DNA from: Escherichia phage UPWr_E2
DNA length: 64,000 bases
Strand: one strand, 5' to 3'
Sequence record: PP418986.1
Under the pieces are notes generated by a model. The model was given only the letters and a program-made list of their open reading frames with translations, was not told the DNA's origin and made no database searches. Shown here piece after piece: positions 28,156-44,742 of this stretch. The position numbers were made by a program, and so were the translations under genes. Each line of letters begins with the position of its first letter. Position 1 is the first letter of the stretch.

Positions 28156-28163
28156 TATAAATA
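28156..28163 (+). promoter_or_regulatory. late promoter box TATAAATA
   Basis: exact tataaata immediately after gp31 stop, 140 nt upstream of rIII. Confidence 0.4.
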
Positions 28164-28302
28164 ATAATATGAATTGGGTGTCGGAATAATAAGTTAACCG
28201 AACAATTCTATGTGGTAGTCTACAACTGAGAGATCTGTCGAAAGAAGATGAAATTCAGAAGAACGTGACTACCGAGTTTTAATCTCTAACGAGAATTTTT
28301 AA

Positions 28303-28551
28303 ATGATTAAACAATTACAACACGCTCTTGAACTGCAACGAAACGCATGGAATAATGGTCACGAAAACTATGGCGCATCTATTGATGTTGAAGCCGAAGC
28401 TCTTGAAATCCTGCGTTATTTCAAACATCTGAATCCTGCTCAAACTGCATTAGCTGCTGAGCTTCAGGAAAAAGATGAACTTAAATATGCTAAGCCTCTG
28501 GCTTCTGCTGCACGAAAAGCAGTTCGTCACTTTGTGGTAACACTGAAGTAA
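28303..28551 (+). CDS. rIII: lysis inhibition accessory protein rIII
   Basis: 82 aa; MIKQLQHALELQRNAWNNGHENYG... Confidence 0.85.
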   Translation: MIKQLQHALELQRNAWNNGHENYGASIDVEAEALEILRYFKHLNPAQTALAAELQEKDELKYAKPLASAARKAVRHFVVTLK

Positions 28552-28949
28552 TTTATTGGAGAGTCACTGCCTTAGTGTGAAGTTAAAACGAGGAGCCGTC
28601 GAACTGTCTGATTAATGATTTGCGAATCATTATAGTTTTAAGACCCCGGCAGTTTTACGGTGTACCTCTTGAATGTTATTCTTATAGCGGCAAGTGCATG
28701 CTACCCCGAGGTGATGGCCAATCGGGAGTACGCCTCAAGGCCTATATATCCATCAGTATATATCTTATCCTCGAGAAATCGAACCCGGAACCTTTAAGCT
28801 AACGGTGTGCAACAGATAAGAGCTATAAGGTATGATGACGGGTTTATAGTTATCCTGGTCGTTAAATATCCAAAAACTTATGTTCCCCTTGAGGGCTTGC
28901 GCAGGCAATGCCAATAAGTCCTGCATTTTCATTTAAAAGAGAATTTATA

Positions 28950-29126
28950 ATGGCAAAACAAGCTAAAGCAAAGAAAGCAGTTGAAAAGAAAGTTGGTGAT
29001 TCTAAACGCGCTGGCTACAAGCGTGGGTCGAACTCTCGTATCAATCAAACTGTTGAGAAGATCATGCGCCGAGCACGTGCGGTTCTTCGAGATGATGCTT
29101 CTCGTTTTGGTAAGCAGAAAGCATAA
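28950..29126 (+). CDS. hypothetical small basic protein (58 aa)
   Basis: MAKQAKAKKAVEKK..., Lys/Arg-rich; followed by strong terminator. Confidence 0.5.
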   Translation: MAKQAKAKKAVEKKVGDSKRAGYKRGSNSRINQTVEKIMRRARAVLRDDASRFGKQKA

Positions 29127-29130
29127 GTTG

Positions 29131-29160
29131 AGGACTCCTTCGGGAGTCCTTTTTTATTTT
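29131..29160 (+). terminator. rho-independent terminator
   Basis: aggactcc-ttcg-ggagtcct then tttttatttt. Confidence 0.8.
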
Positions 29161-29179
29161 CCAAAGATTGCATAAAGTT

Positions 29180-29209
29180 GTTTACAGTATGGTTCCTTTG
29201 TGATAGTAT
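29180..29209 (+). promoter_or_regulatory. early promoter
   Basis: -35 gtttac, 18-nt spacer, -10 tagtat preceded by tga. Confidence 0.5.
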
Positions 29210-29236
29210 TATCTTACACAAACAAAGGAGAATAAA

Positions 29237-29560
29237 ATGAAAACGATTAATCTGAACGCTGCAGTTAAAACTAAATGCTTCAATGGTAAATATGATGAAA
29301 CTATGTGGTTCTTAATGGCAGTTGAAGGTGATATTATTGAAGTAGAAACAACAGAAGGTATGGGAACAGATTTCACCTTTACAATTCAAGTTCATAATTT
29401 CTTTACTGGTTGGATTTATGAATTGAATACAGTAATCGTTGGAAAAATTGAACAAAATGAATTAGGTGAATGGTATTATGTTACAGCTCGCCAACGTGCC
29501 GAACGCTTAATTGAGAAGATGAAAAAGTTGGTAAACTTGACATGCAGCATTGGAAAGTAG
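29237..29560 (+). CDS. hypothetical protein (107 aa)
   Basis: SD aaggag upstream. Confidence 0.55.
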   Translation: MKTINLNAAVKTKCFNGKYDETMWFLMAVEGDIIEVETTEGMGTDFTFTIQVHNFFTGWIYELNTVIVGKIEQNELGEWYYVTARQRAERLIEKMKKLVNLTCSIGK

Positions 29561-29570
29561 TAAAATAATT

Positions 29571-29610
29571 GTTTACTTTGGTACAGGATATGATATTATA
29601 TACCTGTACC
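29571..29610 (+). promoter_or_regulatory. early promoter with -10 inside a hairpin loop
   Basis: gtttac -35, 17-nt spacer, tattat -10; 8-bp stem ggtacagg/cctgtacc flanks the -10. Confidence 0.45.
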
Positions 29611-29635
29611 GCAATTAAACATCTTGGAGAATAAA

Positions 29636-30001
29636 ATGAACTACATCAACTTTGAACGTAAATATGTTTCTAATGGTATTGCAGGTTCTATTGATACTAT
29701 TTGCCTTTGGAAACATCAAAATGGATCAGTATGCGAAATTGAGCAGTATATGACTCCTAATTACGTTTATATGCGATTTGAAAACGGTATCACGGTTTCA
29801 ATCACGATGGAAGGTTCCAACTTTAAAATCGCTCTGGATGATGATTTCCGTGAACGCGATTTAGGGACTCATCCTTGCTGGAATGGCGTTAATCGCAAGC
29901 TTTTGGTTAAAACTTGGATTCGTCATATTCTGAGTAACAGAGCTAAACCTGAGCATCTTGAAGCAATCTTTGATGTAGTTCTTAACGAATTTGATATTTA
30001 A
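29636..30001 (+). CDS. hypothetical protein (121 aa)
   Basis: SD ggaga upstream of ATG 29636; track start 29624 is TTG. Confidence 0.55.
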   Translation: MNYINFERKYVSNGIAGSIDTICLWKHQNGSVCEIEQYMTPNYVYMRFENGITVSITMEGSNFKIALDDDFRERDLGTHPCWNGVNRKLLVKTWIRHILSNRAKPEHLEAIFDVVLNEFDI

Positions 30002-30041
30002 AATAAATGAGGGGCTTTGGCCCCTTACTGAGGAAAATGTT

Positions 30042-30329
30042 ATGTTTATGACTACTTATTTTGATACCCGTAAAAACTTCTGCGAAGTAGTTTTCTCAAA
30101 GGCGCCTAAAGACCTTCCTGCACATTTGCAACCTACCAGTGAATCGATTAAAAACTACGTTAATGTAGTCTGCCCTTTAGAGTTCCGTACTGTAAATGGG
30201 CGCGATACTTTAGCTATCACTAAACTCAATCGTGAAATTGACATTGACCCTTCAATTGCGCGCGAAATTAATATTTCTGATATTGGTGGAGGTAATGTTA
30301 AATCGCATGGTTTTCAGATGAGGTTCTAA
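30042..30329 (+). CDS. hypothetical protein (95 aa)
   Basis: SD gagga upstream of ATG 30042, preceded by hairpin aggggc-tttg-gcccct. Confidence 0.5.
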   Translation: MFMTTYFDTRKNFCEVVFSKAPKDLPAHLQPTSESIKNYVNVVCPLEFRTVNGRDTLAITKLNREIDIDPSIAREINISDIGGGNVKSHGFQMRF

Positions 30330-30526
30330 TGAAATTCTTTTTAGATCAAACCGTTGAATTAAAGGGAGTTGGTATACCTGGATTAATTTCTAAGGTTTTA
30401 CCTGCATTTAAATTGGGAGATGTTCAAGTAAAAGAGGCTTATATTGTTTCTTGGGTAGATGGAAATGAAGACCTTCGTATGGGTGATGAATTATCTCCTA
30501 TCTACGGATTAAAGGAATTAGTATGA
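30329..30526 (+). CDS. hypothetical protein (65 aa)
   Basis: SD gaggt upstream. Confidence 0.45.
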   Translation: MKFFLDQTVELKGVGIPGLISKVLPAFKLGDVQVKEAYIVSWVDGNEDLRMGDELSPIYGLKELV

Positions 30527-30729
30527 ATATAATTAATAAGATTTTTGGAATTCAGTACATTAAGGTCACATATAAAGTAACAGATAAAAATCCATATACC
30601 GATGAACATGAAGAACCACAAATTGAGTCTATTATATTAGAAAAAGGCAGTGACTGGCCAGTTGAATTTCGTCTACCAAACTATGGTCATTGGGCTGATG
30701 TTGAAATTATAAGCATTGAAAATGTCTGA
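30523..30729 (+). CDS. hypothetical protein (68 aa)
   Basis: SD aagga upstream. Confidence 0.45.
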   Translation: MNIINKIFGIQYIKVTYKVTDKNPYTDEHEEPQIESIILEKGSDWPVEFRLPNYGHWADVEIISIENV

Positions 30730-31180
30730 GTTAGAGATTAGAAGTAATTTTAGGTGGCCATCATGTGCATTAAGTAATTTCGCCCATTGGCCTTTCGTTA
30801 TGGATGGTATTCAATTTGGAGGTCTTGAAGGATTCCTCCAAGGATGCAAGGTGAAAAACGTTGAACAACAACGTCGTATATTTGGGTTATCCGGGCTTGC
30901 CGCTCAACAAGCTGGAAGGTCTTATGCTAGAGCTCAGGACCGTGGGACCCTCTTCTGGCTTGGAGTTCCATTTTCAAGATACTCCCCGGCGTGGAAAGAA
31001 TTATGCACAAATGCATATTTTGAAGCAGCGATTCAAAACAAGGGCTTTCGTGATGCATTACAAGCCTCGAAAGGAAAAGTTTTGAAGCACAGCATGGCTA
31101 GTGGTCTAACAAAAGATGATACAATACTAACCGAAGCTGAATTTATTGATGTGTTAAACCTATTAAGAGACTCTCTATGA
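30722..31180 (+). CDS. NADAR/YbiA-like protein (putative ADP-ribose or N-glycoside processing)
   Basis: 152 aa from ATG 30722; SNFAHWPFVMDGIQFGGLEGFLQ resembles the YbiA/NADAR N-terminal motif (from memory). Confidence 0.55.
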   Translation: MSELEIRSNFRWPSCALSNFAHWPFVMDGIQFGGLEGFLQGCKVKNVEQQRRIFGLSGLAAQQAGRSYARAQDRGTLFWLGVPFSRYSPAWKELCTNAYFEAAIQNKGFRDALQASKGKVLKHSMASGLTKDDTILTEAEFIDVLNLLRDSL

Positions 31181-32016
31181 AGCCTACTATTTTAACTGAT
31201 ATTGATGGAGTATGTTTAAGCTGGCAATCAGGTCTTCCTTATTTTGCTCAGAAATATAATCTTCCGTTAGAACATATTTTAAAAATGATCCAGGATGAGA
31301 AATTTATTTCTCCAGGTAAACTCTTTAATTGTGACGAAGAACTTGGCGTCAAGCTAATTGAAAAATACAATCGTTCAGATTTTATTCGTTACTTGTCTCC
31401 ATATAAAGATGCTCTGTGTGTAATTAACAAATTAAAAGAAGATTATAATTTTGTAGCTGTTACAGCATTGGGTGATTCTATTGACGCTCTGCTGAATCGT
31501 CAATTTAATTTGAACGCTCTTTTTCCTGGTGCCTTCTCAGAAGTACTGATGTGTGGTCATGATTCTTCAAAAGAAGAGTTGTTTAAAAAGGCAAAAGAGA
31601 AATATAACGTGATTTGTTATATTGACGATCTCGCTCACCATTGCGATCATGCGAGTGAAATATTAAATGTTCCTGTTTATTGGATGGCTCGAGGAGAGCG
31701 TGACAATATTCCAAAAACTGCTCAGCGAGTTTATACATGGAATGATGTAGAAAATAAGCTTTTTCCATCGAAGGAAAATAAAGAAAGTTTTGATAGTGAA
31801 AAATCTATAAAAGATGTAATTGAAAAGATGATTAAAAACGATTCTTTTCCTTGGAACACTACCTGGAGAACTCCTGGATTTAATCCTTATAATCATCTAT
31901 ATCATCCATATCAGACGCATCCGTTTCAGACATGGAACTATATTAAACCCGGTGGCATAGAGTATTTGTATAATAGACCTACTGGTGCTAATAATATTTT
32001 CCAAGGAGCATTCTAA
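31177..32016 (+). CDS. HAD-superfamily hydrolase-like protein
   Basis: 279 aa; N-terminal TDIDGV motif (DxDx[TV]). Confidence 0.55.
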   Translation: MKPTILTDIDGVCLSWQSGLPYFAQKYNLPLEHILKMIQDEKFISPGKLFNCDEELGVKLIEKYNRSDFIRYLSPYKDALCVINKLKEDYNFVAVTALGDSIDALLNRQFNLNALFPGAFSEVLMCGHDSSKEELFKKAKEKYNVICYIDDLAHHCDHASEILNVPVYWMARGERDNIPKTAQRVYTWNDVENKLFPSKENKESFDSEKSIKDVIEKMIKNDSFPWNTTWRTPGFNPYNHLYHPYQTHPFQTWNYIKPGGIEYLYNRPTGANNIFQGAF

Positions 32017-32285
32017 TGTTTGTTGTTCACACTATTTATGAAAATGAAGGTAATACTACACGTGATTACGGTCACGTAAATCAATTTTTTAGATGCAATC
32101 CAGAATTCCGAGCTCAAAAAGACGAACGAATTTTTAAAAAATGCGTAGAGCAAGGTTTCATTTACGTCAAGCACTGGATGCAAGGAAATAAAGTTAGAAC
32201 CACGTACCACAGGTCTTTGGCTGAGCTTAATGATGAATTGATTTATAATAGAGCTGTAAACCAAACTCTAAAGGATGAACAATGA
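32016..32285 (+). CDS. hypothetical protein (89 aa)
   Basis: SD aaggag upstream. Confidence 0.5.
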   Translation: MFVVHTIYENEGNTTRDYGHVNQFFRCNPEFRAQKDERIFKKCVEQGFIYVKHWMQGNKVRTTYHRSLAELNDELIYNRAVNQTLKDEQ

Positions 32286-33745
32286 TTCTTAAAATTCTGA
32301 ACGAAATAGCATCTATTGGTTCAACTAAGCAGAAGCAAGCAATTCTTGAAAAGAATAAAGATAATGAATTGCTTAAACGAGTATATCGTCTGACTTATTC
32401 TCGTGGGTTACAGTATTATATCAAGAAATGGCCTAAACCTGGTATTGCTACCCAGAGTTTTGGAATGCTGACTATTACTGATATGCTTGACTTCATTGAA
32501 TTTACATTAGCTACTCGAAAATTGACCGGAAATGCGGCAATTGAGGAATTAGTAGGTTATATTACTGACGGTAAAAAAGATGATGTTGAAGTTTTGCGTC
32601 GAGTGATGATGCGAGACCTTGAATGTGGTGCTTCAGTATCTATTGCAAACAAAGTTTGGCCAGGTTTAATTCCTGAACAACCTCAAATGCTCGCAAGTTC
32701 TTATGATGAAAAAGGCATTAATAAGAATATCAAATTTCCAGCCTTTGCCCAGTTAAAAGCTGATGGAGCTCGGTGTTTTGCTGAAGTTAGAGGTGATGAA
32801 TTAGATGATGTTCGTCTTTTATCACGAGCTGGTAATGAATATCTAGGATTAGATCTTCTTAAGGAAGAATTAATCAAAATGACCGCTGAAGCCCGCCAGA
32901 TTCATCCAGAAGGCGTGTTAATTGATGGCGAATTGGTATACCATGAGCAAGTTAAAAAGGAGCCAGAAGGCCTAGATTTTCTTTTTGATGCTTATCCTGA
33001 AATTAGTAAAGCTAAAGAATTCGCCGAAGTAGCTGAATCACGTACTGCATCTAATGGCATCGCCAATAAATCTTTAAAGGGAACCATTTCTGAAAAAGAA
33101 GCTCAATGCATGAAGTTTCAGGTCTGGGATTATGTCCCGTTGGTAGAAATATACGGTCTTCCTGCATTTCGTTTGAAATATGATGTACGTTTTTCTAAAC
33201 TAGAACAAATGACATCAGGTTATGATAAAGTAATTTTAATTGAAAACCAGGTAGTAAATAACCTAGATGAAGCTAAGGTAATTTATAAAAAGTATATTGA
33301 TCAAGGTCTTGAAGGTATTATTCTCAAAAATACCGATGGATTATGGGAAAATGCTCGTTCAAAAAATCTCTATAAATTTAAAGAAGTAATTGATGTTGAT
33401 TTAAAAATTGTAGGAATTTATCCTCACCGTAAAGACCCTACTAAAGCAGGTGGATTTATTCTTGAGTCAGAGTGTGGAAAAATTAAGGTAAATGCTGGTT
33501 CAGGCTTAAAAGACAAAGCCGGCGTAAAATCACATGAACTTGACCGTACTCGTATTATGGAAAACCAAAATTATTATATTGGAAAAATTCTAGAGTGCGA
33601 ATGCAACGGTTGGTTAAAATCTGATGGCCGCACTGATTACGTTAAATTATTTCTTCCGATTGCGATTCGTTTACGTGAAGATAAAACTAAAGCTAATACA
33701 TTCGAGGATGTATTTGGTGATTTTCATGAGGTAACTGGTTTATGA
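32282..33745 (+). CDS. 30: ATP-dependent DNA ligase
   Basis: 487 aa; MILKILNEIASIGSTKQKQAILEKNKDNELLKRVYRL... matches T4 DNA ligase. Confidence 0.95.
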   Translation: MILKILNEIASIGSTKQKQAILEKNKDNELLKRVYRLTYSRGLQYYIKKWPKPGIATQSFGMLTITDMLDFIEFTLATRKLTGNAAIEELVGYITDGKKDDVEVLRRVMMRDLECGASVSIANKVWPGLIPEQPQMLASSYDEKGINKNIKFPAFAQLKADGARCFAEVRGDELDDVRLLSRAGNEYLGLDLLKEELIKMTAEARQIHPEGVLIDGELVYHEQVKKEPEGLDFLFDAYPEISKAKEFAEVAESRTASNGIANKSLKGTISEKEAQCMKFQVWDYVPLVEIYGLPAFRLKYDVRFSKLEQMTSGYDKVILIENQVVNNLDEAKVIYKKYIDQGLEGIILKNTDGLWENARSKNLYKFKEVIDVDLKIVGIYPHRKDPTKAGGFILESECGKIKVNAGSGLKDKAGVKSHELDRTRIMENQNYYIGKILECECNGWLKSDGRTDYVKLFLPIAIRLREDKTKANTFEDVFGDFHEVTGL

Positions 33746-33930
33746 AAGCTTACTTAGAAACAATTGTCATTGCTCAAAAAGAAGGTGGAGATGTTTCTAC
33801 TTCTGTATCACAAGTCATTCTCGAATTTGTAGATGCATACGCTTATAATAAATTTACAGAAACATTTGATGCCTATGAAAAAGGACCAAAGTTTGAAATA
33901 TATCGTACTCTCTTACCACTAGATTACTAA
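33742..33930 (+). CDS. hypothetical protein (62 aa)
   Basis: SD gaggt upstream. Confidence 0.5.
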   Translation: MKAYLETIVIAQKEGGDVSTSVSQVILEFVDAYAYNKFTETFDAYEKGPKFEIYRTLLPLDY

Positions 33931-33955
33931 AGGCCTTCGGGCCTTTAATTTTATA
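33931..33955 (+). terminator. hairpin plus U-rich tract
   Basis: aggcc-ttcg-ggcct then ttaatttta. Confidence 0.55.
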
Positions 33956-33959
33956 AATA
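33952..33959 (+). promoter_or_regulatory. late promoter box TATAAATA upstream of the Alt-like genes
   Basis: exact tataaata 21 nt upstream of ATG 33980. Confidence 0.5.
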
Positions 33960-33979
33960 GAATAAACACTAGAGAGGCT

Positions 33980-36037
33980 ATGATGGAACTTATTACAGAA
34001 TTATTTGACGAAGATACTACTCTTCCGATTACAAACTTAAATCCAAAGAAGAAAATACCGCAAATTTTTTCAGTTCATGTTGATGATGCAATTGAACAAC
34101 CAGGCTTTCGTTTATGTACCTATACATCTGGAGGTGATACTAATCGCGATTTAAAAATGGGCGATAAAATGATGCATATTGTTCCTTTTACATTAACTGC
34201 TAAAGGTTCAATTGCTAAATTAAAAGGTCTTGGTCCAAGCCCAATTAATTATATCAATTCAGTTTTTACTGTTGCAATGCAAACAATGCGTCAGTATAAA
34301 ATTGATGCTTGTATGCTTCGTATTCTTAAGTCTAAAACCGCTGGTCAAGCTCGACAAATTCAAGTTATTGCTGATAGACTTATCCGTAGTCGTTCAGGTG
34401 GCAGATACGTCCTTCTTAAGGAACTCTGGGATTACGATAAAAAGTATGCATATATTCTTATACATCGCAAAAATGTATCACTAGAAGACATTCCGGGAGT
34501 TCCGGAAATTAGTACTGAGCTCTTTACTAAAGTTGAATCGAAGGTCGGTGATGTTTATATCAATAAAGATACTGGAGCTCAAGTAACTAAAAATGAGGCA
34601 ATTGCAGCATCTATTGCGCAAGAAAATGATAAACGTTCTGACCAAGCTGTAATCGTTAAAGTTAAAATTTCCCGTAGAGCAATTGCGCAAAGTCAATCAT
34701 TGGAATCTTCTAGATTTGAAACGCCGATGTTTCAAAAATTTGAGGCTTCAGCAGCAGAATTAAATAAACCTGCTGACGCTCCTTTAATTTCTGACGCTAA
34801 TGAATTAACTGTTATTTCTACTTCAGGATTTGCATTAGAGAATGCTCTTAGTAGTGTTACAGCTGGAATGGCATTCAGAGAAGCTTCTATAATTCCTGAA
34901 GATAAAGAATCTGATGTTAATGCAGAAATAAAAAATAAAGCTTTAGAAAGATTACGAAAAGAATCTATTACTTCAATAAAAACTTTAGAAACTATTGCTT
35001 CTATAGTTGATGATACTTTAGAAAAATATAAAGGTGCTTGGTTAGAAAGAAACATTAACAAGCATTCGCATTTAAATCAAGATGCTGCGAATGAGTTAGT
35101 ACAAAATTCTTGGAATGCAATAAAAACAAAGATTATTCGAAGAGAATTGCGTGGATATGCTCTTACCGCTGGATGGTCACTACATCCTATAGTCGAAAAT
35201 AAAGATTCATCTAAATACACACCGGCACAAAAACGCGGAATTCGTGAATACGTAAGTTCAGGATATGTAGACATAAATAACGCTCTTTTGGGATTATATA
35301 ATCCAGATGAGCGTACAAGTATTTTGACAGCATCTGATATAGAAAAAGCTATTGATAATTTAGATTCTGCCTTTAAAAATGGTGAACGATTACCAAAAGG
35401 TATTACTTTGTATCGTTCACAACGAATGTTACCTTCAATATATGAAGCACTGGTAAAAAATCGAGTTTTTTATTTTAGAAATTTTGTGTCAACATCATTA
35501 TATCCAAATATTTTTGGTACCTGGATGACTGATTCATCTGTGGGTGTTTTACCAGACGAAAAGCGTTTAAGTGTTTCTATTGATAAAACTGATGAAGGAC
35601 TAGTAAATTCTAGCGATAATTTAGTTGGAATTGGATGGGTTATTACTGGGGCTGATAAAGTCAATGTTGTTTTACCAGGTGGAAGTTTAGCACCTTCAAA
35701 TGAAATGGAAGTCATTTTGCCACGTGGATTAATGGTCAAAGTTAATAAAATAACCGATGCATCTTACAATGATGGAACAGTTAAAACTAACAACAAGCTT
35801 ATTCAAGCTGAAGTTATGACCACAGAAGAACTCACCGAATCGGTAATTTATGACGGTGACCGTCTAATGGAAACCGGCGAAGTAGTTACAATGACAGGTG
35901 ATATTGAAATAGAAGACAGAGTTGATTTTGCATCATTTGTTTCATCAAATGTTAAACAGAAAGTAGAATCATCTCTTGGAATTATTGCGTCTTGTATAGA
36001 TATTGCAAACATGCCTTACAAGTTCGTTCAAGGATAA
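33980..36037 (+). CDS. alt: Alt-like mono-ADP-ribosyltransferase, paralog A
   Basis: 685 aa; Arg (TLYRSQR), STS (FVSTSL) and ExE (EMEVILPRG) ART motifs; N-terminus MELITELFD. Confidence 0.8.
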   Translation: MMELITELFDEDTTLPITNLNPKKKIPQIFSVHVDDAIEQPGFRLCTYTSGGDTNRDLKMGDKMMHIVPFTLTAKGSIAKLKGLGPSPINYINSVFTVAMQTMRQYKIDACMLRILKSKTAGQARQIQVIADRLIRSRSGGRYVLLKELWDYDKKYAYILIHRKNVSLEDIPGVPEISTELFTKVESKVGDVYINKDTGAQVTKNEAIAASIAQENDKRSDQAVIVKVKISRRAIAQSQSLESSRFETPMFQKFEASAAELNKPADAPLISDANELTVISTSGFALENALSSVTAGMAFREASIIPEDKESDVNAEIKNKALERLRKESITSIKTLETIASIVDDTLEKYKGAWLERNINKHSHLNQDAANELVQNSWNAIKTKIIRRELRGYALTAGWSLHPIVENKDSSKYTPAQKRGIREYVSSGYVDINNALLGLYNPDERTSILTASDIEKAIDNLDSAFKNGERLPKGITLYRSQRMLPSIYEALVKNRVFYFRNFVSTSLYPNIFGTWMTDSSVGVLPDEKRLSVSIDKTDEGLVNSSDNLVGIGWVITGADKVNVVLPGGSLAPSNEMEVILPRGLMVKVNKITDASYNDGTVKTNNKLIQAEVMTTEELTESVIYDGDRLMETGEVVTMTGDIEIEDRVDFASFVSSNVKQKVESSLGIIASCIDIANMPYKFVQG

Positions 36038-36040
36038 ATC

Positions 36041-38098
36041 ATGGAACTTATTACAGAATTATTTGACGGCGCTTCGGCGCCGGTTGTTAACTTAAATCCT
36101 AAGCATAAAATACCACAAATTTTTGCTATTCAAGCCGGCGAAGAAAGCGTGCTTCCTGGATTTAGATTTTGTACATACACCTCTGGTGGTGATACGAATA
36201 AAAACGTTAAGCCAGGCGATAAAATGATGCATATCGTAATGATAGGTGTTAATGAGAAACTATCATTAGTTAAGCTTAAAAACTTGGGTGGAAATCCAAT
36301 TGGTGTCATTAATGCCGTTTTTGATACTGCTCTTCAAACAATGAAACAGTATAAAATCGACGCATGCCTATTCCGCGTACTAAAAAGTAAAACAAATGGC
36401 GCTGCTCGTCAAATGCAAGTTATTGCTGACCGTTTAGTACGTACTAAAGGAGCAGGTCGATATGTTCTTTTAAAGGAAATCTGGGACTATGATAAAAAGT
36501 ATGCATATATTATGGTTTACCGTAAAAATGCCAATTTAGAAGACATTCCAGGTGTACCTCCTATTTCAACCGAGTTATTCACAAAAGTTGAATCGAAGGT
36601 CGGTGATGTTTATGTAGATGTTAAAACAGGTAATGCTGTTCCTAAAGCTGTCGCTGTTGCTGCTTCTATTGCTTTAGAAAATGATAAGCGCACGGATCAA
36701 GCGGTTATTCAAAAAACTAAAATTAGTCGTCGATTAGCAGCACAAGCTCAATATTCTACTGTTGATGCTTCACTTCAGGGTGATAGCTTCGCTGCTAAGA
36801 AATATCAAGAGTTTGAATCTAAAGTTCCGGTGTATAAAGCAGAAGGACCAATGAACTCTGGCGTTATTCAAATTGGTTCAAACTTCAGCAAAGGAGCTAT
36901 AGGCGGTATGAGAAGCGCTTCTCGTTTTAAATCTAGTGATTATGAACTCGAAAGCTTCCGAAATCATATTGCATTAGCCCATGCACGTTTACGTGATCCA
37001 TCTATCAAGTTACAGAGCGATATAACATATCAAGGTTCTCAAGAATATTTAAAGAATAAAGAATTCTTTGATTATAAGACTGATAAAATTTTAAGCGATC
37101 TTGCTGATATTAATATTTCTAATAGCTTTGATGTTATTAAGAAAATTATCAATGATTTGGTTAAAGGTTCTAAAGCTACGCCAGATGAAAAGACAGCTAT
37201 TATTCAATTTGTCATGAATGGCATTTATAAATTGATTAATGAATCTGCTGCTCAGGCATATGAATACGCAAGCACTGAAGTAACTCCAAAAGGATTAACT
37301 CAAGCTGAATCTGATGTAATTGAAGATTATTGTGCAGATTCATATGTTGAAATGAACTCGTTCCTTTTGGGTAAACCAGATTCTACCCGTGAAGAATATA
37401 TGGAACGAGCTATTAAACATATTGAGACGCTTGATTCTGCATTCGCTAAAGGTTCAGTTCTTCCTCCAGGAACTACACTTTACCGTGGACAAGAAGTTAC
37501 CTTTAAAACTTTGCGTCATAACATTGAAAATAAAATGTTCTATTTCAAGAACTTCGTATCCACATCGCTTAAACCAAATATCTTCGGTGAGCATGGTAAA
37601 AACTATATGGCTCTAGATGATTCCGGCGCAGTATTTTCTGGTGAAGGAGAAGGTTCCGTTGATGCAGAAGATTTGATGCATATGGGTAGTCATTCTACAT
37701 ATGCTAATGAAGATGCTGAAACTAGCGTGGGTATGGTAATTAAAGGAGCTGAGCGAATCAAAGTTATCGTTCCGGGTCATTTATCAGGATTTCCGTCAGA
37801 AGCTGAAGTTATTCTACCACGTGGAATTTTACTGAAGATTAATAAAGTAAGTACTTACTTTATGAAAGAAACTGCTTATAACAAGTATCTAATCGAAGGT
37901 ACAATCGTTCCTCCTTCTGAACAATTAGAAGAATCAGTATATGATGGCGACCATCTAATGGAAACTGGTGAAGTTCGTCCAATGGCTGGATTTAATCAAT
38001 TCCTTGTAGAAGAATCAAAAGAAGAGGAAAGCGAAGTTTCTCAAATCTTAGCTTCTTTGGTTAACATCAACGGAATGTCTAAAAAGTTCAAAATGTAG
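36041..38098 (+). CDS. Alt-like mono-ADP-ribosyltransferase, paralog B
   Basis: 685 aa; TLYRGQE, FVSTSL, EAEVILPRG motifs; N-terminal ~230 aa similar to paralog A, centre divergent. Confidence 0.8.
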   Translation: MELITELFDGASAPVVNLNPKHKIPQIFAIQAGEESVLPGFRFCTYTSGGDTNKNVKPGDKMMHIVMIGVNEKLSLVKLKNLGGNPIGVINAVFDTALQTMKQYKIDACLFRVLKSKTNGAARQMQVIADRLVRTKGAGRYVLLKEIWDYDKKYAYIMVYRKNANLEDIPGVPPISTELFTKVESKVGDVYVDVKTGNAVPKAVAVAASIALENDKRTDQAVIQKTKISRRLAAQAQYSTVDASLQGDSFAAKKYQEFESKVPVYKAEGPMNSGVIQIGSNFSKGAIGGMRSASRFKSSDYELESFRNHIALAHARLRDPSIKLQSDITYQGSQEYLKNKEFFDYKTDKILSDLADINISNSFDVIKKIINDLVKGSKATPDEKTAIIQFVMNGIYKLINESAAQAYEYASTEVTPKGLTQAESDVIEDYCADSYVEMNSFLLGKPDSTREEYMERAIKHIETLDSAFAKGSVLPPGTTLYRGQEVTFKTLRHNIENKMFYFKNFVSTSLKPNIFGEHGKNYMALDDSGAVFSGEGEGSVDAEDLMHMGSHSTYANEDAETSVGMVIKGAERIKVIVPGHLSGFPSEAEVILPRGILLKINKVSTYFMKETAYNKYLIEGTIVPPSEQLEESVYDGDHLMETGEVRPMAGFNQFLVEESKEEESEVSQILASLVNINGMSKKFKM

Positions 38099-38151
38099 TT
38101 TACAAGTCCCTCGTGTTGTGTTATAGTAGTCTTACTGACATAACATGAGGA
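38098..38151 (+). promoter_or_regulatory. early promoter/leader cassette, copy 2 of the identical 54-bp repeat
   Basis: identical to 22168-22221. Confidence 0.55.
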
Positions 38152-38158
38152 ACACAAA

Positions 38159-38449
38159 ATGAAATCTTCTTTGCGCTTTTTAGGTCAAGAACTTGTAGTT
38201 GAAGGAGTTATTCCTGCTGATAATGCTTTTAATGAAGCAGTTTACGATGAATTTATCAAAATTTTTGGAACAGATAAAAAGTTCGGAATTTTTCCTTCTG
38301 AAAATTTTTCAAAGCCAGAACAGACTGAAAGTATTTTCCAAGGTGTAGTAACAGGTAAATTTGAGTCAGAAGCTCCGGTAAAAATTGAAGTTTATATTGA
38401 AGACAGTTTAGTTGCTTCAGTTTCTGCTTTCATTTCATTCCGTAAATAA
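38159..38449 (+). CDS. hypothetical protein (96 aa)
   Basis: SD gagga upstream. Confidence 0.55.
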   Translation: MKSSLRFLGQELVVEGVIPADNAFNEAVYDEFIKIFGTDKKFGIFPSENFSKPEQTESIFQGVVTGKFESEAPVKIEVYIEDSLVASVSAFISFRK

Positions 38450-38454
38450 AAATA

Positions 38455-38474
38455 TGGGGACCGAAAGGTCCCCA
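38455..38474. terminator. bidirectional hairpin between convergent genes
   Basis: tggggacc-gaaa-ggtcccca with T-rich flanks on both strands. Confidence 0.6.
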
Positions 38475-38477
38475 TTG

Positions 38478-39443
38478 TTATATTGCTCCTAATATTTTAC
38501 TCTGCGAATTGACAATTCCTGTCATAGTATTAATATTTGAAATGCTTCCTGCAGTTCCCCCTAATCTACTAAGTCGTGAAAGCGAATTAGATAGTCCAGT
38601 AACACCTCCACTATTTCCGAGAACGCTTTGAATACCATTTATAGTAGCAGATTCAAGCCATTCAATGGCAGCTTGTCTATCAACTGCTCCAGCCTGCATC
38701 ACTCTATACGCAAAAGTAACATCAAATGTAGTTATTTGGTTATCTCCATCATATGATAACTCAGGAGCGCTTACGGACACTGGAATGCATCCAGTGAACA
38801 TCACCGCAGTATGTGGTAATCCATTGCGAGAATGAAGATTAACCTGAATATCTGCCTCGACATCTTGCGGCAAAGCACGCAATCCAGTTACTGGGTCTTG
38901 AACAGCGTTAACCCAGTCTTGCATTGCACGATAGTTACAAGCTTCTGAATCCATTCTGAATGAAATAACCAAAGGGTCTAATTCTCTCCCAGTTATACGA
39001 ATATTAGGAGAATTATAGTTCCAGTCAGTTTCATAGGATAATCTATTCTCTGGCATTTTTACAGAGTATATCATCAATCCAGATGAGTTATATGCCATGT
39101 TAAAGAAGTCAATTAAATATGTACCAACTGTAAATGAGCCTAATAAACTTTGAACTGTACGTTGACTCATGGCACCAATAAGATATTTACTAACCCCTGA
39201 TTTTCTTATCAGTTTTTGTGTGCCAGCTGTAATTAGCGTAGTAATTCCCTGATTAATATCGCCTTGAGTTAATCCTAACCAATCTGAATTTAGGCCCAAG
39301 TTATTATAAGAAAAGTTGCTAATTGAACTTATCAACGAAGAGCTTTTAGTTGATGGAGTTGTAGCAAAAACACAGCTGAACATATTATTACGTTGGAAAT
39401 CTGCGTTTATTGCTTGATTATTAAATTCCTCTAAAGAATACAT
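38478..39443 (-). CDS. 54: baseplate tail tube initiator gp54
   Basis: 321 aa; MYSLEEFNNQAINADFQRNNMFSCVFATTP... matches T4 gp54. Confidence 0.92.
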   Translation of the reverse strand: MYSLEEFNNQAINADFQRNNMFSCVFATTPSTKSSSLISSISNFSYNNLGLNSDWLGLTQGDINQGITTLITAGTQKLIRKSGVSKYLIGAMSQRTVQSLLGSFTVGTYLIDFFNMAYNSSGLMIYSVKMPENRLSYETDWNYNSPNIRITGRELDPLVISFRMDSEACNYRAMQDWVNAVQDPVTGLRALPQDVEADIQVNLHSRNGLPHTAVMFTGCIPVSVSAPELSYDGDNQITTFDVTFAYRVMQAGAVDRQAAIEWLESATINGIQSVLGNSGGVTGLSNSLSRLSRLGGTAGSISNINTMTGIVNSQSKILGAI

Positions 39444-40537
39444 TAAAAAGTCCCCGCATATAAAGAAGCACGGTTTAACGTGATAATTTCTCTCATAGTA
39501 ATCTCGAGAGTAAATGTACTAGGGAGATTTGGAGCAATAGCTAATCCGTTAAAGTTACCATTAGGTGTTTTATCAAATCTGATACTCTGGATTTGACATG
39601 GACCGAATATTTCCGTTTTTCCATCAAACTTAGATGTTGCACCAAAGTTTTTCACCATCCAAATTGTCGGGTTTGAAACTACAAGAACGTTAGTTAAACT
39701 CGATGTCATTTTCTCAAATAACGTCTTATTTTTAACTGCATCTTCTGGAGTTAACGGCTCAATAAAAGTAGAACGGTACCACTCATCTAGATATCCTTTT
39801 ATTTCAGCAGCATATTGAGATTTACCAGTTTCACCGTAAGAAAAATAGTTAAAATACTGATAGATATTAATAATAGCCATTAAATCTTCTGTTGAGCGCG
39901 GAGTCAAATCCCAAGTGAACACTTTAGTTCTATTTTCAGCACCGCCGTACATGCTTCTGGCTGTCGTATAAATCTGTTCATTATTATCAGCCATTATACC
40001 TTGTGTTATACTTTCCAGCGCTCCAAATACTGCGGTTGAAGCCATATTGCTTAGCACACCAGTAGCAGTACCTCCACCTTTTGTAATAAGACTATCTTGA
40101 ACATCATTAAATCTATGTGATGACGTATCGACGTCAGATTTAGATCTAGGTAAAAGAATATTTGCAACAGGAACTTTACTTATTGTTCCTGAATTATTAT
40201 CTGATATTAGTCCATTTGATAGTTTTGATACTGTATTACTGATAGTGTTTCTGGCTGTACGTAAAATACTCGAAGATGAAGAAGAGTAGTTAGATCTCAT
40301 CGTTCTAAGACTTCCAGAATCCCTAGATGACATATTGTATGCAGTAAATAATAATCCATTCTTATATAGATCTGTTACCTGGAAGTCCCCTGTAGTGTCA
40401 TTACCACTAGCACGCCCAGTTGGAAACTGGGCTGTGTATGTTTTAGTTCCTACTTCTGATTTAGTACTCTGTCCGGCTGAAATTTTCTCACCGGACTTTT
40501 TAATTAAATCAGCAGTTATTTCTTTAACAATTGCCAT
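39443..40537 (-). CDS. 48: baseplate tail tube cap gp48
   Basis: 364 aa; MAIVKEITADLIKKSGEKISAG... matches T4 gp48. Confidence 0.92.
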   Translation of the reverse strand: MAIVKEITADLIKKSGEKISAGQSTKSEVGTKTYTAQFPTGRASGNDTTGDFQVTDLYKNGLLFTAYNMSSRDSGSLRTMRSNYSSSSSSILRTARNTISNTVSKLSNGLISDNNSGTISKVPVANILLPRSKSDVDTSSHRFNDVQDSLITKGGGTATGVLSNMASTAVFGALESITQGIMADNNEQIYTTARSMYGGAENRTKVFTWDLTPRSTEDLMAIINIYQYFNYFSYGETGKSQYAAEIKGYLDEWYRSTFIEPLTPEDAVKNKTLFEKMTSSLTNVLVVSNPTIWMVKNFGATSKFDGKTEIFGPCQIQSIRFDKTPNGNFNGLAIAPNLPSTFTLEITMREIITLNRASLYAGTF

Positions 40538-40545
40538 ATTATTCC

Positions 40546-42318
40546 TTAATTAACTCCCGTCGCACCAAATACACCAGGAGCAGTTGTGCTTGTGACAGGT
40601 GTCATATTATGAACGACAGTATTTTTCTTAATAACATTATTAGTATTATTGATTGAAGGAGATGCTTGTTGAACAGGAGCTTGTTGTGCTTTGTTCTTTT
40701 CAATCACCTGGACCTGTTTTGCTTCTGGTGATTTAGCAGAAGTTTCAGGTTTTGCTTCAGGTTGATTTTTCTTGAGCTCTTGATAAGTGGCATCAATTTT
40801 AGCAAATCTAGAAGCAAGTTCTTTTTTAACTGCTGGTGAATTATTTAAATCCGGATCATTCATTCGTTTTTTAAGGTCTTCATGAGCAGCTTCAATTGAT
40901 TTAACTGTCGAGTCTTTGCTCATATCAGCTGAATCAGCATATTTTTCAAAACGAATCATCGCAGCACGAGCTTCATTAGCTTTCATTAAAGCATTTTTTC
41001 TTTCTTCCGGTGAAAGTTGTTTTAATTTTTCTTCTTCTGCTGCACGTTCTTCGTCAGTAGTCAATGCTTCTTTATTATCTACACCACGAATCCAGTTAGA
41101 TGCACGAGTTTTCCAGTTCGCAATTTTGTCTAATCCTTTTGCTATTGGGCCAAGATCATCATTCATTCGTTTATCTTGATAATTTGCTACTTTTTCTTGG
41201 TCTTCTTTATTAAGAGATGCTCCAGTAGAATTTTGGAAATTTTCTAATGCTCTTCCTTCTACTTCATCAGCAGTATCCTTCATGCCAGGAATGACTCGAA
41301 GAATTGCTGCAGATAATTTAGCCATACCTAATTGAATAAGCTCTCCTAAATTATAAAGAACACTTCCAAGCCCTTCAACAATAGCTACTGTTAATCCGCC
41401 CCAATCTCCAGCTTCCCAGAACTTTTTAATTTCATCAATAGATTCAAAGATGCTTTGTAATAAAGGGCCCCAAGTTCCTGTTTCGCTTGAGAAAGTTTTA
41501 AAATCAGTGCTAAATAAATCCCAGGCTTTTGAAAATTTATCTGACCAGTATTTAAAATGAACCATCAGCAGGTCTATTCCAATAACAACAGCCATTATCA
41601 ATGCAACCATTTTAGCAGCTTCAATAGCAGCACTGACGGTATACTTAAATAGCATGCTAGATATTTTATCAGTAATTGAAATAGATTTCTTAAATCCGAA
41701 ATCAACTGTCTTTGTTAATTTATCTAAAGCTTGAGATAATTTTAAGTTAAATGCGTCTCTTTTTTGCTTCTCTTCTGGAGACTCTTGTTTTGGTTCAATT
41801 GGCTGAGGAGTAGGGAAAAAATCAGCATCAGGATCATTATTAACTGCTTCAGGAGCCGGTAATAAAGGACCCACAGATTCAGCTGTATCATCCTCGACGA
41901 CTTTAACAGGAATAGCATTTTCGACTACTGCTAAACTCGTTCCAGTCTGTTGAATTCCAGCTGTTTGAATTTTTTGTTCTAATAAACTCGTTAATTTATC
42001 TAATTTGCTTCCGAGTGATTCGCCTATTTCTTTATTGATATTATTGCCAATTTCAACAGTCTCGGCAATTAACTCAGAACCGGCAGTAGTATCACTCACT
42101 GCGCTTTCAACGTTATCAATTGCTCCAACTATTTCATTTGATTTTTCTTCAACAGTCTGAGCTATTAATTCAGAGGCAGCTTGAGCATCATCTAATTTTG
42201 TAGAAATGTCATTAAGACCAGATAAAGTATTAGAAGCGGATTTAGCCGCTTCCTGTGTTGGTTTATTATCTGAAATAACTTTTCTACGCATCGTTTGCAT
42301 TTCTTGTGGCTTTTTCAT
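40546..42318 (-). CDS. 29: baseplate hub subunit / tail length determinator gp29
   Basis: 590 aa, T4 gp29 length and position. Confidence 0.9.
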   Translation of the reverse strand: MKKPQEMQTMRRKVISDNKPTQEAAKSASNTLSGLNDISTKLDDAQAASELIAQTVEEKSNEIVGAIDNVESAVSDTTAGSELIAETVEIGNNINKEIGESLGSKLDKLTSLLEQKIQTAGIQQTGTSLAVVENAIPVKVVEDDTAESVGPLLPAPEAVNNDPDADFFPTPQPIEPKQESPEEKQKRDAFNLKLSQALDKLTKTVDFGFKKSISITDKISSMLFKYTVSAAIEAAKMVALIMAVVIGIDLLMVHFKYWSDKFSKAWDLFSTDFKTFSSETGTWGPLLQSIFESIDEIKKFWEAGDWGGLTVAIVEGLGSVLYNLGELIQLGMAKLSAAILRVIPGMKDTADEVEGRALENFQNSTGASLNKEDQEKVANYQDKRMNDDLGPIAKGLDKIANWKTRASNWIRGVDNKEALTTDEERAAEEEKLKQLSPEERKNALMKANEARAAMIRFEKYADSADMSKDSTVKSIEAAHEDLKKRMNDPDLNNSPAVKKELASRFAKIDATYQELKKNQPEAKPETSAKSPEAKQVQVIEKNKAQQAPVQQASPSINNTNNVIKKNTVVHNMTPVTSTTAPGVFGATGVN

Positions 42319-42848
42319 TCAAATAATCCAATAATATTGCCAATTCCGGTTATTGGACCATTAGGGCCAGGAATTGCTAAAGTTGTAGAAATATCATTTG
42401 CCCATTTTAAAACAAATGCTGGCATCTCAAGAAAATTAATTTCTTTAACTTCATCATTGACCTTAAGCAAGCATTTGGATAACATATCGCTTACAGTTAA
42501 AAATTGTTCAAATTTTCCAGGAGGTCTAAAATAAAATGTATTTCCTTGGTATTGAAATTCCAATCTTTGACATACATAAACGTCATTAATATCATAAGTA
42601 TAACCATCTATTTCTTTACGAGATTTAATCTTTCCATTAAATTCCAATAAATGAATAGAAACGAAATCAACTTCTGCCGGTGATAAATTCGGACAAATAG
42701 AATCAATAAGAAGTTTTAAATTTTCATCAGGACCTTTAACATCTTTTAAAATGTTATAATGTTTAAGACCCATCTTAGGAATAGAAACTTCTTTATTACT
42801 TATTGGAAGAACTACTTTCTTCAGTGGTAGTATCAGATTTAAATTCAT
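42315..42848 (-). CDS. 28: baseplate hub distal subunit gp28
   Basis: 177 aa, synteny. Confidence 0.85.
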
Positions 42849-43968
42849 TTTTAACCTTAACTGGGTCTATTGTTTCCAGTTTCGTCGCATTAGTGAACAT
42901 ATATAGATGAGTTACTGAATTATTATTTGATAATTCATGGATAACTTCATCAACGTAAAATTCTGTTTTAAATTGGTTTTTACTATCATTAAAAATAATT
43001 TTAACACCAGGAGTCAAGTTAAAATTACCGACAGTAGAACATTTAGCATAGCCATCATATTGCGCCATAGTTTGAAGACGAATAGCTTCTTCATAGCCAT
43101 TTCTATAAGTCATTTCAGAATAAGCACCTGACCTTGACACTACAATAGAGTTTTCACCCTTTCCTGTAGTAATCATTGGCAGTGAAGAATCTAAAAACGA
43201 ATGAGCATAGATAGTAGCATTTTTCATTGGATCACGTTTATGCGGGTTTGATTTAGTCAACCAAACAAAATCATATGCTAATGGATATTTCAATTCTTGG
43301 ACGAATTGACCTATTAAAGTTGGCTCACCTACAATCATTGGATATGGTTCTTGATTTATCATCATATCATAGTCCATCATGTTAACTCCCATGATGTCTT
43401 GCCATACAAATACGAACTTATCGCTTCCTACCGCTAGAGCAACTTCTCTTACATAGGACAAATAATTTTCAAATGTACTAGTCCATGGAATATCAGGAAC
43501 ATAAGCATTTATAGCATTTATTGCTGGAGTTAATAATGTGCGGTCTTGATAAATGACACCAAGCATTTCTTTTATAGATTCACCTGCATCAGGGAAAAAT
43601 GGTCTACCAAATTTAAGATTTTCTATAGAATGAATAGTTCCCAATTCAATAGCAATGATGTTATCGCCTTTTGAATCTACTGACACGGAAAAATGTTTGC
43701 ATCCATAAATTCGTGTTTTAACATTATTAATATCGTTTGCATTAGCTACAGAAATTTGAATTATTTCATTTCCATCCATTTTTGTATGAATGTTTTTAGA
43801 ATCATAAAATTGTAGCATTCCTTCATTTCGACCATAAAGAGAGTCACGCATAGTTAATGTGGTAATAGTAGCAGCTAATTCAACAAATCTATTATTACTC
43901 CAAGCGTCATAACTCTCAAATAATTTAACGCTGAGATTTGGATATCCAGGACGTTGTAACATACTCAT
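42796..43968 (-). CDS. 27: baseplate hub subunit gp27
   Basis: 390 aa, synteny. Confidence 0.9.
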
Positions 43969-44717
43969 TGATGTTTATCCTTCTCAATCAGTTTTAATAC
44001 GAATCCGCGTTCGGCAGGAATCATTTTCATTATTGAATTTAAGCTATAATTACTTTTTACAAGCGTGTGATTAATTTGATAAAAAGTAAATATCTCATCT
44101 GGATTAACTAATAGCTTAAACACATCTACTATATCAGTGTATTTTTTAATGTACTTATCACAACACGACATGTGCAATGTTAAATTAATAGGATTCATTG
44201 CATCGAGAATTTTTTCTAATGTTTCTATCTCGATGGCGTCAACTAGTTCTATTTGACTGGACTCGCTAATTTCCTTCCAATCATACCATATTTCATCTAC
44301 TTGAACAGAATGAATATTTTCAGTAATCATCTTTGCTTTATTTTCATAAAACTCAGAAGGAAACTTTAATTTAATTTTAACATTAGCTACATCAAAAACA
44401 GGTTCCTTTAATTCTTTTTGATATATTTCAAATGGAACTGTCTTTTCTTTTTTACATTTTGGACATACAAATGTGACCGGTACTTTAGTTTTACCTATTG
44501 AACCTACAAATACCTGCAAAAATATAAATGGTTGCCAAGTCTTTGGATAGTCTCCAAAATAATCAGCAATTAAATCAGCAATTACTTCTTTTTGTTCTTG
44601 TGGTGACCGATGTTCTATATCGTTTCGAACTAACAAAAAATCTCGATAATCTTCTACCGTAAATGGTTTAAAACGATGAACACCATCTGGTAATTTACAA
44701 CGAATAATGTTTGCCAT
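43965..44717 (-). CDS. 51: baseplate hub assembly catalyst gp51
   Basis: 250 aa, synteny. Confidence 0.85.
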
Positions 44718-44734
44718 AGATGCTCCTTTTATTC

Positions 44735-44742
44735 TATTTATA
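44735..44742 (-). promoter_or_regulatory. late promoter box TATAAATA (minus strand) for gene 51
   Basis: part of self-complementary tatttataaata, 18 nt upstream of gene 51 ATG. Confidence 0.6.

Follow-up and report, generated by a model that had tools for sequence, protein, structure and literature searches.

Why does a T-even phage carry two adjacent genes for Alt-like enzymes, and is the second of these a spare copy or an effector in its own right? The question arises from a 64,000-nucleotide stretch of DNA (here termed the window) of Escherichia phage UPWr_E2 (sequence record PP418986.1), in which two adjacent + strand open reading frames (ORFs) of 685 amino acids (aa) each, ORF1 and ORF2, extend from 33980 to 36037 and from 36041 to 38098. 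The original prediction, made from the sequence, described these ORFs as diverged, Alt-like ADP-ribosyltransferase paralogs and suggested that their host targets differ. Alt is the textbook capsid-carried phage enzyme, which rewires the host within seconds of infection; to our knowledge, information on Alt derives almost wholly from phage T4. The analyses described here indicated that ORF1 is alt and that ORF2, termed alt2, is a full-length, maintained paralog of which T4 retains a stump. The pair is likely to constitute a late operon for two head-packaged and injected arginine ADP-ribosyltransferases, both processed by the prohead protease gp21. Homology, motifs, fold, synteny, promoter layout, purifying selection and population distribution were computed here; late expression, packaging, cleavage sites and injection were taken from the T4 Alt literature; for Alt2, that it is packaged, cleaved and active and has targets of its own is extrapolated. 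Coordinates are those of the window unless another record is named, and all features of the two genes and of their expression signals lie on the + strand.

Two enzymes of the Alt family

The ORF1 protein, read from position 33983, was identical to T4 Alt (NP_049811) at 672 of 682 residues (98.5%) and is, by its sequence, the T4 Alt ortholog. Both proteins matched phrog_802 (Alt-like RNA polymerase ADP-ribosyltransferase) from end to end (ORF1 residues 1-683, 9.6e-262; ORF2 residues 1-685, 1.6e-256). The sole match returned by a Pfam search of both ORFs was PF03496 (ADPrib_exo_Tox), with scores of 120.9 bits (5.6e-35) for ORF1 and 71.9 bits (5.9e-20) for ORF2 and a gathering cut-off of 23.4 bits; the N-terminal domain family PF26846 (Tevenvirinae_ADPRT) is recorded for a 99%-identical protein (P0001) and its relatives. 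The R, S-T-S and E-x-E motifs that had been predicted for both ORFs were located in the canonical order, as R478 (within LYR), S503-T-S505 and E574-M-E576 in ORF1 and as R482, S507-T-S509 and E587-A-E589 in ORF2, and the catalytic arginine, both serines and both glutamates were invariant in a 61-sequence family alignment. The ADP-ribosyltransferase beta-sandwich fold was found in both. These results support the assignment of both ORFs to the Alt family of R-S-E ADP-ribosyltransferases. Arginine is the probable acceptor, given the presence of E-x-E rather than Q-x-E and the analogy with T4 Alt, and ORF1 is expected, from its 98.5% identity to T4 Alt, to ADP-ribosylate Arg265 of the RNA polymerase alpha subunit.

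An alignment against T4 Alt, ModA and ModB had been suggested as a check. Neither ORF exhibited a detectable likeness to ModA or ModB (BLASTP E values of at least 1 and no phmmer match), ruling out ORF2 as a Mod-type enzyme. A sequence search of the PDB detected a weak match of ORF1 to CdtA (E of 0.008) and none for ORF2, and no NCBIfam family matched.

Over their whole length the two proteins were 41% identical (BLASTP E of 7e-159), with identity unevenly distributed along the chain. Residues 1-238 of each were 67.6% identical, in agreement with the conserved N-terminal region of about 230 aa noted originally. No significant similarity (E of 2.1) was detected between the centres, residues 239-405 of ORF1 and 239-415 of ORF2, while the catalytic domains (ORF1 406-620, ORF2 416-632) and the C-terminal tails (ORF1 621-684, ORF2 633-685) were 37% and 38% identical, respectively. 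The ADP-ribosylating turn-turn (ARTT) loops read GGSLAPSNEME in ORF1 and GHLSGFPSEAE in ORF2, and an acidic insertion differs as well.

Predicted models of both proteins contained an alpha/beta N-domain (residues ∼15-215), an all-helical centre, an ADP-ribosyltransferase domain and a poorly ordered tail. The basic N-domain, which bears the family signature, spans aa 7-238 in ORF1 (34001..34696; isoelectric point [pI] of 9.5) and in ORF2 (36059..36754; pI of 9.7; 68% identical to that of ORF1). The centre of ORF1 (aa 239-405, 34697..35197) was predicted with 7 helices at a predicted local distance difference test (pLDDT) score of about 90 and that of ORF2 (aa 239-415, 36755..37285) with 8 helices. 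The catalytic domains follow at 35198..35839 (aa 406-619, ending at LTE-619) and at 37286..37933 (aa 416-631, ending at LEE-631). Structure prediction of the centres, another of the suggested checks, therefore revealed a like architecture. The ORF2 model also aligned over its full length (645 columns, TM score of 0.69) with the structure predicted for an Alt homolog (32% identical) of phage SP18. Because the helical architecture and length match and the ORF2 model aligns in this way, the centres probably differ in sequence and not in fold. The earlier description of centres that differ completely over about 200 aa thus held for the absence of detectable sequence similarity; the region is nearer to 170 aa, both versions are helical and the catalytic domain has diverged too. 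As the catalytic domain and the ARTT loop also differ, target specificity need not reside in the centre. Structure searches detected no convincing solved relative of either the N-domain or the centre. A second ADP-ribosyltransferase fold was not found in the N-domain: of the toxins compared, about 160-200 residues aligned, and the two-domain toxins aligned over about 180-200 residues, corresponding to one domain.

Expression signals, processing and packaging

The 5′ end of ORF1 reads ATGATGG, and the second ATG, at 33983, is the most likely start, giving a protein that begins with MELITE. This start is favoured because a GAGAGG Shine-Dalgarno sequence (33972..33977) lies 5 nt upstream of it (2 nt before the ATG at 33980), because T4, which also has ATGATGG, is annotated with the MELITE start (as is the record of Yersinia phage PYps55T), and because the published numbering of the cleavage site ITE-6 presumes it. 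Hence, of the two 685-aa proteins listed, the second stands at that length (alt2, 36041..38098) and the first is likely to have 684 aa (alt, 33983..36037, with the ATG at 33980 as an alternative).

A T4-type late promoter box, TATAAATA, is present at 33952..33959 and ends 20 nt before the ATG at 33980, matching the late box that had been placed 21 nt upstream of the first ORF. It directly follows a terminator-like, G+C-rich hairpin with a T-run (33928..33947; terminator scan) that would close the transcription unit of gene 30 (DNA ligase) and alt.1. The same hairpin is found upstream of T4 alt, where the hairpin-TATAAATA-ATGATGG layout is identical, and a conserved terminator upstream of alt has been described (Nolan 2006; PMC1524935). 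On its own, TATAAATA is weak evidence, as 17 copies were counted in the window versus 8.2 expected by chance; a late promoter is indicated by the box in conjunction with the T4 layout, with late expression itself known from T4 alt alone, for which transcriptome and proteome time courses show late-gene behaviour (PMC9697503). The copy upstream of ORF1 is the sole one from 28163 to 44735, which leaves ORF2 without a late box specific to it, and late-box and terminator scans detected no separate promoter or terminator between ORF1 and ORF2. Judged from this arrangement, the two genes are very likely co-transcribed. The start of ORF2 is located 3 nt past the stop of ORF1 and its AAGGA Shine-Dalgarno sequence lies within the end of ORF1, making translational coupling of ORF2 to ORF1 plausible.

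Both proteins have I-T-E as residues 4-6. This motif, which had been likened to a prohead-protease site, coincides exactly with the gp21 site published for T4 Alt. Mass spectrometry of T4 Alt demonstrated the loss of 6 residues at ITE-6 and of 63 C-terminal residues at LTE-619, leaving a mature protein of 68.2 kDa (PMC5694885; see also PMC9958956 and PMC9026906). Both sites are present in ORF1, for which a mature mass of 68.1 kDa was computed, comparable to the published 68.2 kDa. The ORF1 propeptides are MELITE (33983..34000), cut by gp21 after E6 according to the published T4 Alt site, and an acidic C-terminal segment of 65 aa (35840..36034; pI of 4.2) that contains YDGDxLMETGEV. ORF2 carries ITE-6 and LEE-631, the latter aligned with LTE-619 of Alt, and a mature protein of 69.1 kDa is predicted, with removal of the same hexapeptide MELITE (36041..36058; predicted gp21 cut after E6) and, by alignment to T4 Alt, of an acidic C-terminal propeptide of 54 aa (37934..38095; pI of 4.6). 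Thus, gp21 motifs occur at both ends of both proteins, the C-terminal L-x-E being situated ∼60 aa from the C terminus. E6 and E631 did not vary in an alignment of 16 sequences, and their conservation was 90% or more in larger alignments. Across the family the motif YDGDxLMETGEV was conserved better than most of the catalytic domain. The C-propeptide, which is acidic in both proteins (35840-36034 and 37934-38095) and has a K-F motif at its end, could function in targeting, in tethering or in holding the enzyme inactive until packaging.

The proposal that the proteins are capsid packaged and injected holds for T4 Alt, the ortholog of ORF1: T4 alt belongs to the late genes, and the protein it encodes is packaged and injected (PMC9697503; PMC2988021). 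An Alt homolog was also detected by mass spectrometry in the virion of Morganella phage MP1 (PMC5384007). As both gp21-site glutamates and the propeptide motif are kept across the family, Alt2 would be packaged and processed like Alt, and the N-domain may represent a head-core or packaging module. Searches for the N-domain among 1.84 billion representative proteins yielded only 69 clusters, with alignments that in most cases are confined to residues 1-250. Nearly all members are 600-712 aa in length, and PF03496, the ADP-ribosyltransferase domain, was present in 58 of the 60 that were scanned. The idea of the N-domain as a general packaging module on other types of effector was rejected, as these 58 members pair with PF03496 and no other domain family was observed.

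The surroundings of the pair are those of the T4 alt locus. A 4.8-kb region around both ORFs was 100% identical to the reverse strand of Yersinia phage PYps55T (MT515756, Tequatrovirus). To the left are the DNA ligase gene (gene 30) and the small alt.1, and to the right are an alt.-3 homolog and the convergent tail genes 54 and 48; the position of the pair between gene 30/alt.1 and alt.-3/gene 54 is conserved, with an identical gene order in CM8, KarlGJung and a diverged contig (L004). The alt.1 homolog (33742-33930, +, 62 aa, phrog_1976) has a start that overlaps the ligase stop codon, and alt.1 homologs in related contigs match Pfam PF24647 ('Phage_blade'). The alt.-3 homolog (38159-38449, +, 96 aa, DUF5498, phrog_1739) is preceded by an early-type promoter-like site, TTTACA-17-TATAGT, at 38099-38127 and ends at a bidirectional terminator-like hairpin at 38454-38475. 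In T4, mutants with a C-terminal extension of Alt.-3 evade the CmdTAC defence by blocking CmdA degradation (PMC11618068).

Maintenance of alt2, its remnant in T4 and cassette exchange

The 1.7 kb specific to ORF2 was intact in 401 phage-collection records, including those of T2, RB10, RB14, AR1 and phiD1. Comparison of ORF2 with its CM8 and KarlGJung orthologs gave ratios of nonsynonymous to synonymous divergence (dN/dS) of 0.02-0.03 in every module, at a synonymous divergence (dS) of 0.14-0.20. The Alt/Alt2 pair was also present in the far more diverged contig L004, with N-domains 89-93% identical and effector parts only 27-70% identical to those of ORF1 and ORF2. Because ORF2 is intact in so many records, has a low dN/dS and is kept with its partner in this diverged contig, it is, on this comparative evidence, a maintained gene and not a decaying copy. 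The dS between ORF1 and ORF2 was about 1.3.

The pair is already present in the public annotation of hundreds of genomes and, in outline, in the literature, and hence is not new. In RefSeq relatives both genes are annotated as 'Alt-like RNA polymerase ADP-ribosyltransferase'; the second is labelled 'alt.-2' in RB14 and 'Alt2' in BASEL records, phage KarlGJung having 'Alt' and 'Alt2'. In MT515756.1, the coding sequence PYps55T_031 (window 36041-38098) is a 'hypothetical protein', as in many sister records. A separate observation concerned MG010123.1 (Staphylococcus phage SAJK-IND), in which ∼300 nt at 31813-32172 matched the 3′ end of ORF2 and the region upstream of alt.-3 in T-even phages at 95-96% identity; the T-even end of this 32-kb record is probably contamination or a chimeric assembly.

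Phage T4 contains two short genes, alt.-1 and alt.-2 (NP_049810 and NP_049809), at the corresponding place (contig L002, 3066-3451). Their DNA could be aligned base by base to the initial ∼350 nt of ORF2, and their protein families (phrog_23015 and phrog_15247) matched ORF2 better than ORF1. Two lesions were identified, a 1-nt deletion causing a frameshift in an A-run near window position 36200 and a 1,699-bp deletion between two 9-bp direct repeats, CTAAAAAGT, whose copies at 36380..36388 and 38079..38087 mark the left and right ends of the T4 deletion. A 151-nt probe across the junction was complete in 91 phage records, among them T4 stocks and independent isolates such as JEP6, ACG-C40, Lv5cm and pSe_SNUABM_01. 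As the junction is common to all of these records, the deletion is, as judged from the distribution of the junction, natural and lineage-wide. The alignment likewise indicates that alt.-1 and alt.-2 are the stump of a full-length paralog, contrary to the T4 record's 'old duplication of first part of alt'. Nolan et al. 2006 had already counted alt.-1 and alt.-2 among the paralogs of alt, and described a full-length duplicate of alt in phage 44RR (PMC1524935).

The first gene also exists in more than one version. In CM8, KarlGJung and T2 the first alt gene (CM8, contig L005, 1045-3138; KarlGJung, contig L006, 1042-3138) was 100% identical to ORF1 in the N-domain and 94-98% identical in the C-tail but 34% identical in the centre and 62% in the catalytic domain. 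The dS between the CM8-type gene and ORF1 was low in the flanks (about 0.1 for the N-domain, 0.05 for the tail) compared to about 1.0 in the cassette that matches window positions 34697-35839. These values indicate that an old alternative cassette was swapped in by recombination at position 1, since a cassette dS ten-fold above that of the flanks is a sign of imported old divergence and not of fast local evolution. The CM8/T2-type cassette was complete in 344 records and the T4-type cassette in 174.

Exchange between the two positions was evident in phage ECML-134 (NC_025449; contig L009, 3102-5162) and in SCS4, which have one hybrid gene that is Alt-type to ∼nt 453-475 and Alt2-type thereafter. 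In ECML-134, 238 of 245 informative sites fit one crossover, and the hybrid, composed of the Alt N-domain and the Alt2 centre, catalytic domain and tail, stands alone between alt.1 and alt.-3, a configuration that implies unequal recombination between the tandem paralogs. Other crossover points were detected in three contigs from sequencing runs or metagenomes (L003, L007 and L008). The junctions of L007 and L008 were not found at high identity in isolate genomes, and these two hybrids may be assembly artefacts or collapses.

The original prediction had seen in the divergent centres the outcome of an effector arms race. Within each type dN/dS was 0.02-0.07, ruling out ongoing positive selection within each paralog, and the notion of a race that continues through fast evolution could not be upheld; what survives of it is the presence of old, discrete effector cassettes exchanged by recombination. 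The pattern fits a conserved packaging frame that carries a few old, interchangeable effector modules, and would be compatible with selection for effector diversity. The cassette mosaic is not evidence for different targets. What is added here is modest and may be familiar to specialists: the mechanism of the T4 deletion, the hybrid genes and the alternative position-1 cassette.

Readings of Alt2 and comparison with known systems

In the proposed mechanism, transcription from TATAAATA (33952-33959) would run across both genes, with translation of ORF2 coupled to that of ORF1. Each product would consist of five parts, namely the MELITE propeptide, a basic N-domain of ∼230 aa, a helical region of ∼170 aa, the R-S-E domain and an acidic C-propeptide of 54-65 aa. 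The N-domain would position the protein in the prohead core, where cuts by gp21 after ITE-6 and after L-x-E (619 in Alt, 631 in Alt2) would release mature enzymes of 68 and 69 kDa. Injected together with the DNA, these would then modify host proteins by transferring ADP-ribose from NAD+ to arginines. Alt2 would then be an old, functionally maintained paralog with a different or partly overlapping target set. That its targets differ from those of Alt appears, on balance, somewhat probable because the centre, the catalytic domain, the ARTT loop and the acidic insertion all differ and both genes have long been retained together.

Our tentative proposal goes further. Alt2 may be a second injected T-even effector with targets unlike those of Alt, overlooked as a consequence of T4 being a natural alt2 deletion mutant, and the alt locus may be an effector-swapping platform consisting of a conserved packaging frame, made up of the propeptide, the basic N-domain and the acidic C-propeptide, and of no fewer than three old cassettes, each a helical region plus a catalytic domain, that can replace one another (T4-type Alt, CM8/T2-type Alt and Alt2); the set carried by a phage might shape the hosts and defence backgrounds that are open to takeover. 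Several points weigh against the mechanism proposed above. The ORF2 model is of moderate confidence (pLDDT of 73), the loops at 517-554 and 629-663 being of low confidence; the packaging role of the N-domain and the translational coupling are both features that we infer; and the literature searched contained no paper on the function, virion presence, cleavage, activity or targets of Alt2. Furthermore, either gene can be lost in nature, Alt2 being absent from the T4 lineage (91 records) and the effector part of Alt from ECML-134. As natural lineages lose either effector, the two may be at least partially redundant for viability.

This last point leads to the most serious of the alternatives, in which ORF2 is a back-up of Alt that shares the targets of Alt, among them Arg265 of RNA polymerase alpha, and raises the injected dose. 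The domain order, the catalytic triad and the arginine-type E-x-E motif are the same in both proteins, one late promoter serves both genes, natural lineages live with one effector part and T4 Alt is itself non-essential (PMC9026906). Pure redundancy would, however, be unusual for a duplication as old as this one (dS of about 1.3) with strong purifying selection on both copies; the helical regions cannot be aligned, the catalytic domains are 37% identical, the ARTT loops and the acidic insertion differ, and position 1 has two alternative cassettes in the population. We consider the back-up reading unlikely. Less probable by far is an Alt2 that is active but unpackaged and acts late in the producing cell, which would agree with the late promoter and with the lack of any proteomic report of Alt2 in virions in the literature searched. 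An unpackaged enzyme is difficult to reconcile with retention of the N-domain (68% identical), ITE-6, the C-terminal L-x-E and the conserved C-propeptide, or with ECML-134 and the hybrid contigs, which splice an Alt N-domain onto an Alt2 body and keep the gene intact, so that the N-domains appear to be interchangeable. A decaying, functionless duplicate like T4 alt.-1/alt.-2, as might be suspected from the loss in T4 and about 90 related records and from the 'hypothetical protein' label in PYps55T, is strongly disfavoured by the intact full-length ORF in 401 records, by a dN/dS of 0.02-0.03 at a dS of 0.14-0.20, by the invariance of all catalytic residues and by the survival of the ortholog pair in the much more distant contig L004.

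On the present comparison T4 is the exception: most of its relatives in the phage collection have a second intact and strongly conserved Alt-type enzyme. The effector part of the first gene exists in two old alternative versions, and T2 has one that T4 lacks. The repertoire of injected ADP-ribosyltransferases of T-even phages would hence be wider than the T4 literature implies, and Alt2 is a candidate for a role in host takeover or counter-defence; the practical value of these results is as a pointer.

Among known systems the closest is T4 Alt, the head-packaged and injected NAD+:arginine mono-ADP-ribosyltransferase; ORF1 is its ortholog and lies, as in T4, between alt.1/gene 30 on one side and gene 54 on the other. 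ORF2 is as long as T4 Alt and shares its order of domains, its catalytic motifs, its gp21 site motifs and its place in the late operon. The two are, however, only 41% identical overall, with helical regions of ∼170 aa that cannot be aligned, catalytic domains at 37% identity and different ARTT loops. Compared to T4 alt.-1/alt.-2, with which its DNA is nearly identical over ∼350 nt, the gene is intact here and destroyed there.

The R-S-E toxins of bacteria (Vis, C3bot/C3stau, VIP2, the iota-like CPILE-a, Certhrax, SpvB and ExoS) are delivered by secretion or by the B component of a binary toxin, whereas delivery of Alt involves head packaging and coinjection with the DNA, a route known for T4 Alt and presumed for Alt2. 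Binary toxins such as VIP2 and iota toxin, and also CDTa, have a degenerate second ADP-ribosyltransferase fold at the N terminus, unlike the N-domain of Alt. T4 ModA and ModB are, like Alt, phage R-S-E ADP-ribosyltransferases acting on host transcription or translation proteins, but they are about 200 aa in length, early and unpackaged and have no BLASTP or phmmer similarity to the Alt proteins. The T4 internal proteins IPI-III share with Alt residence in the head core, a short N-terminal propeptide cut by gp21 after a glutamate and ejection into the host (PMC9026906). In contrast to IPI-III, the Alt proteins are enzymes of large size (in T4, each head contains about 40 copies), with an extra conserved N-domain of 230 aa and a C-propeptide that is cleaved.

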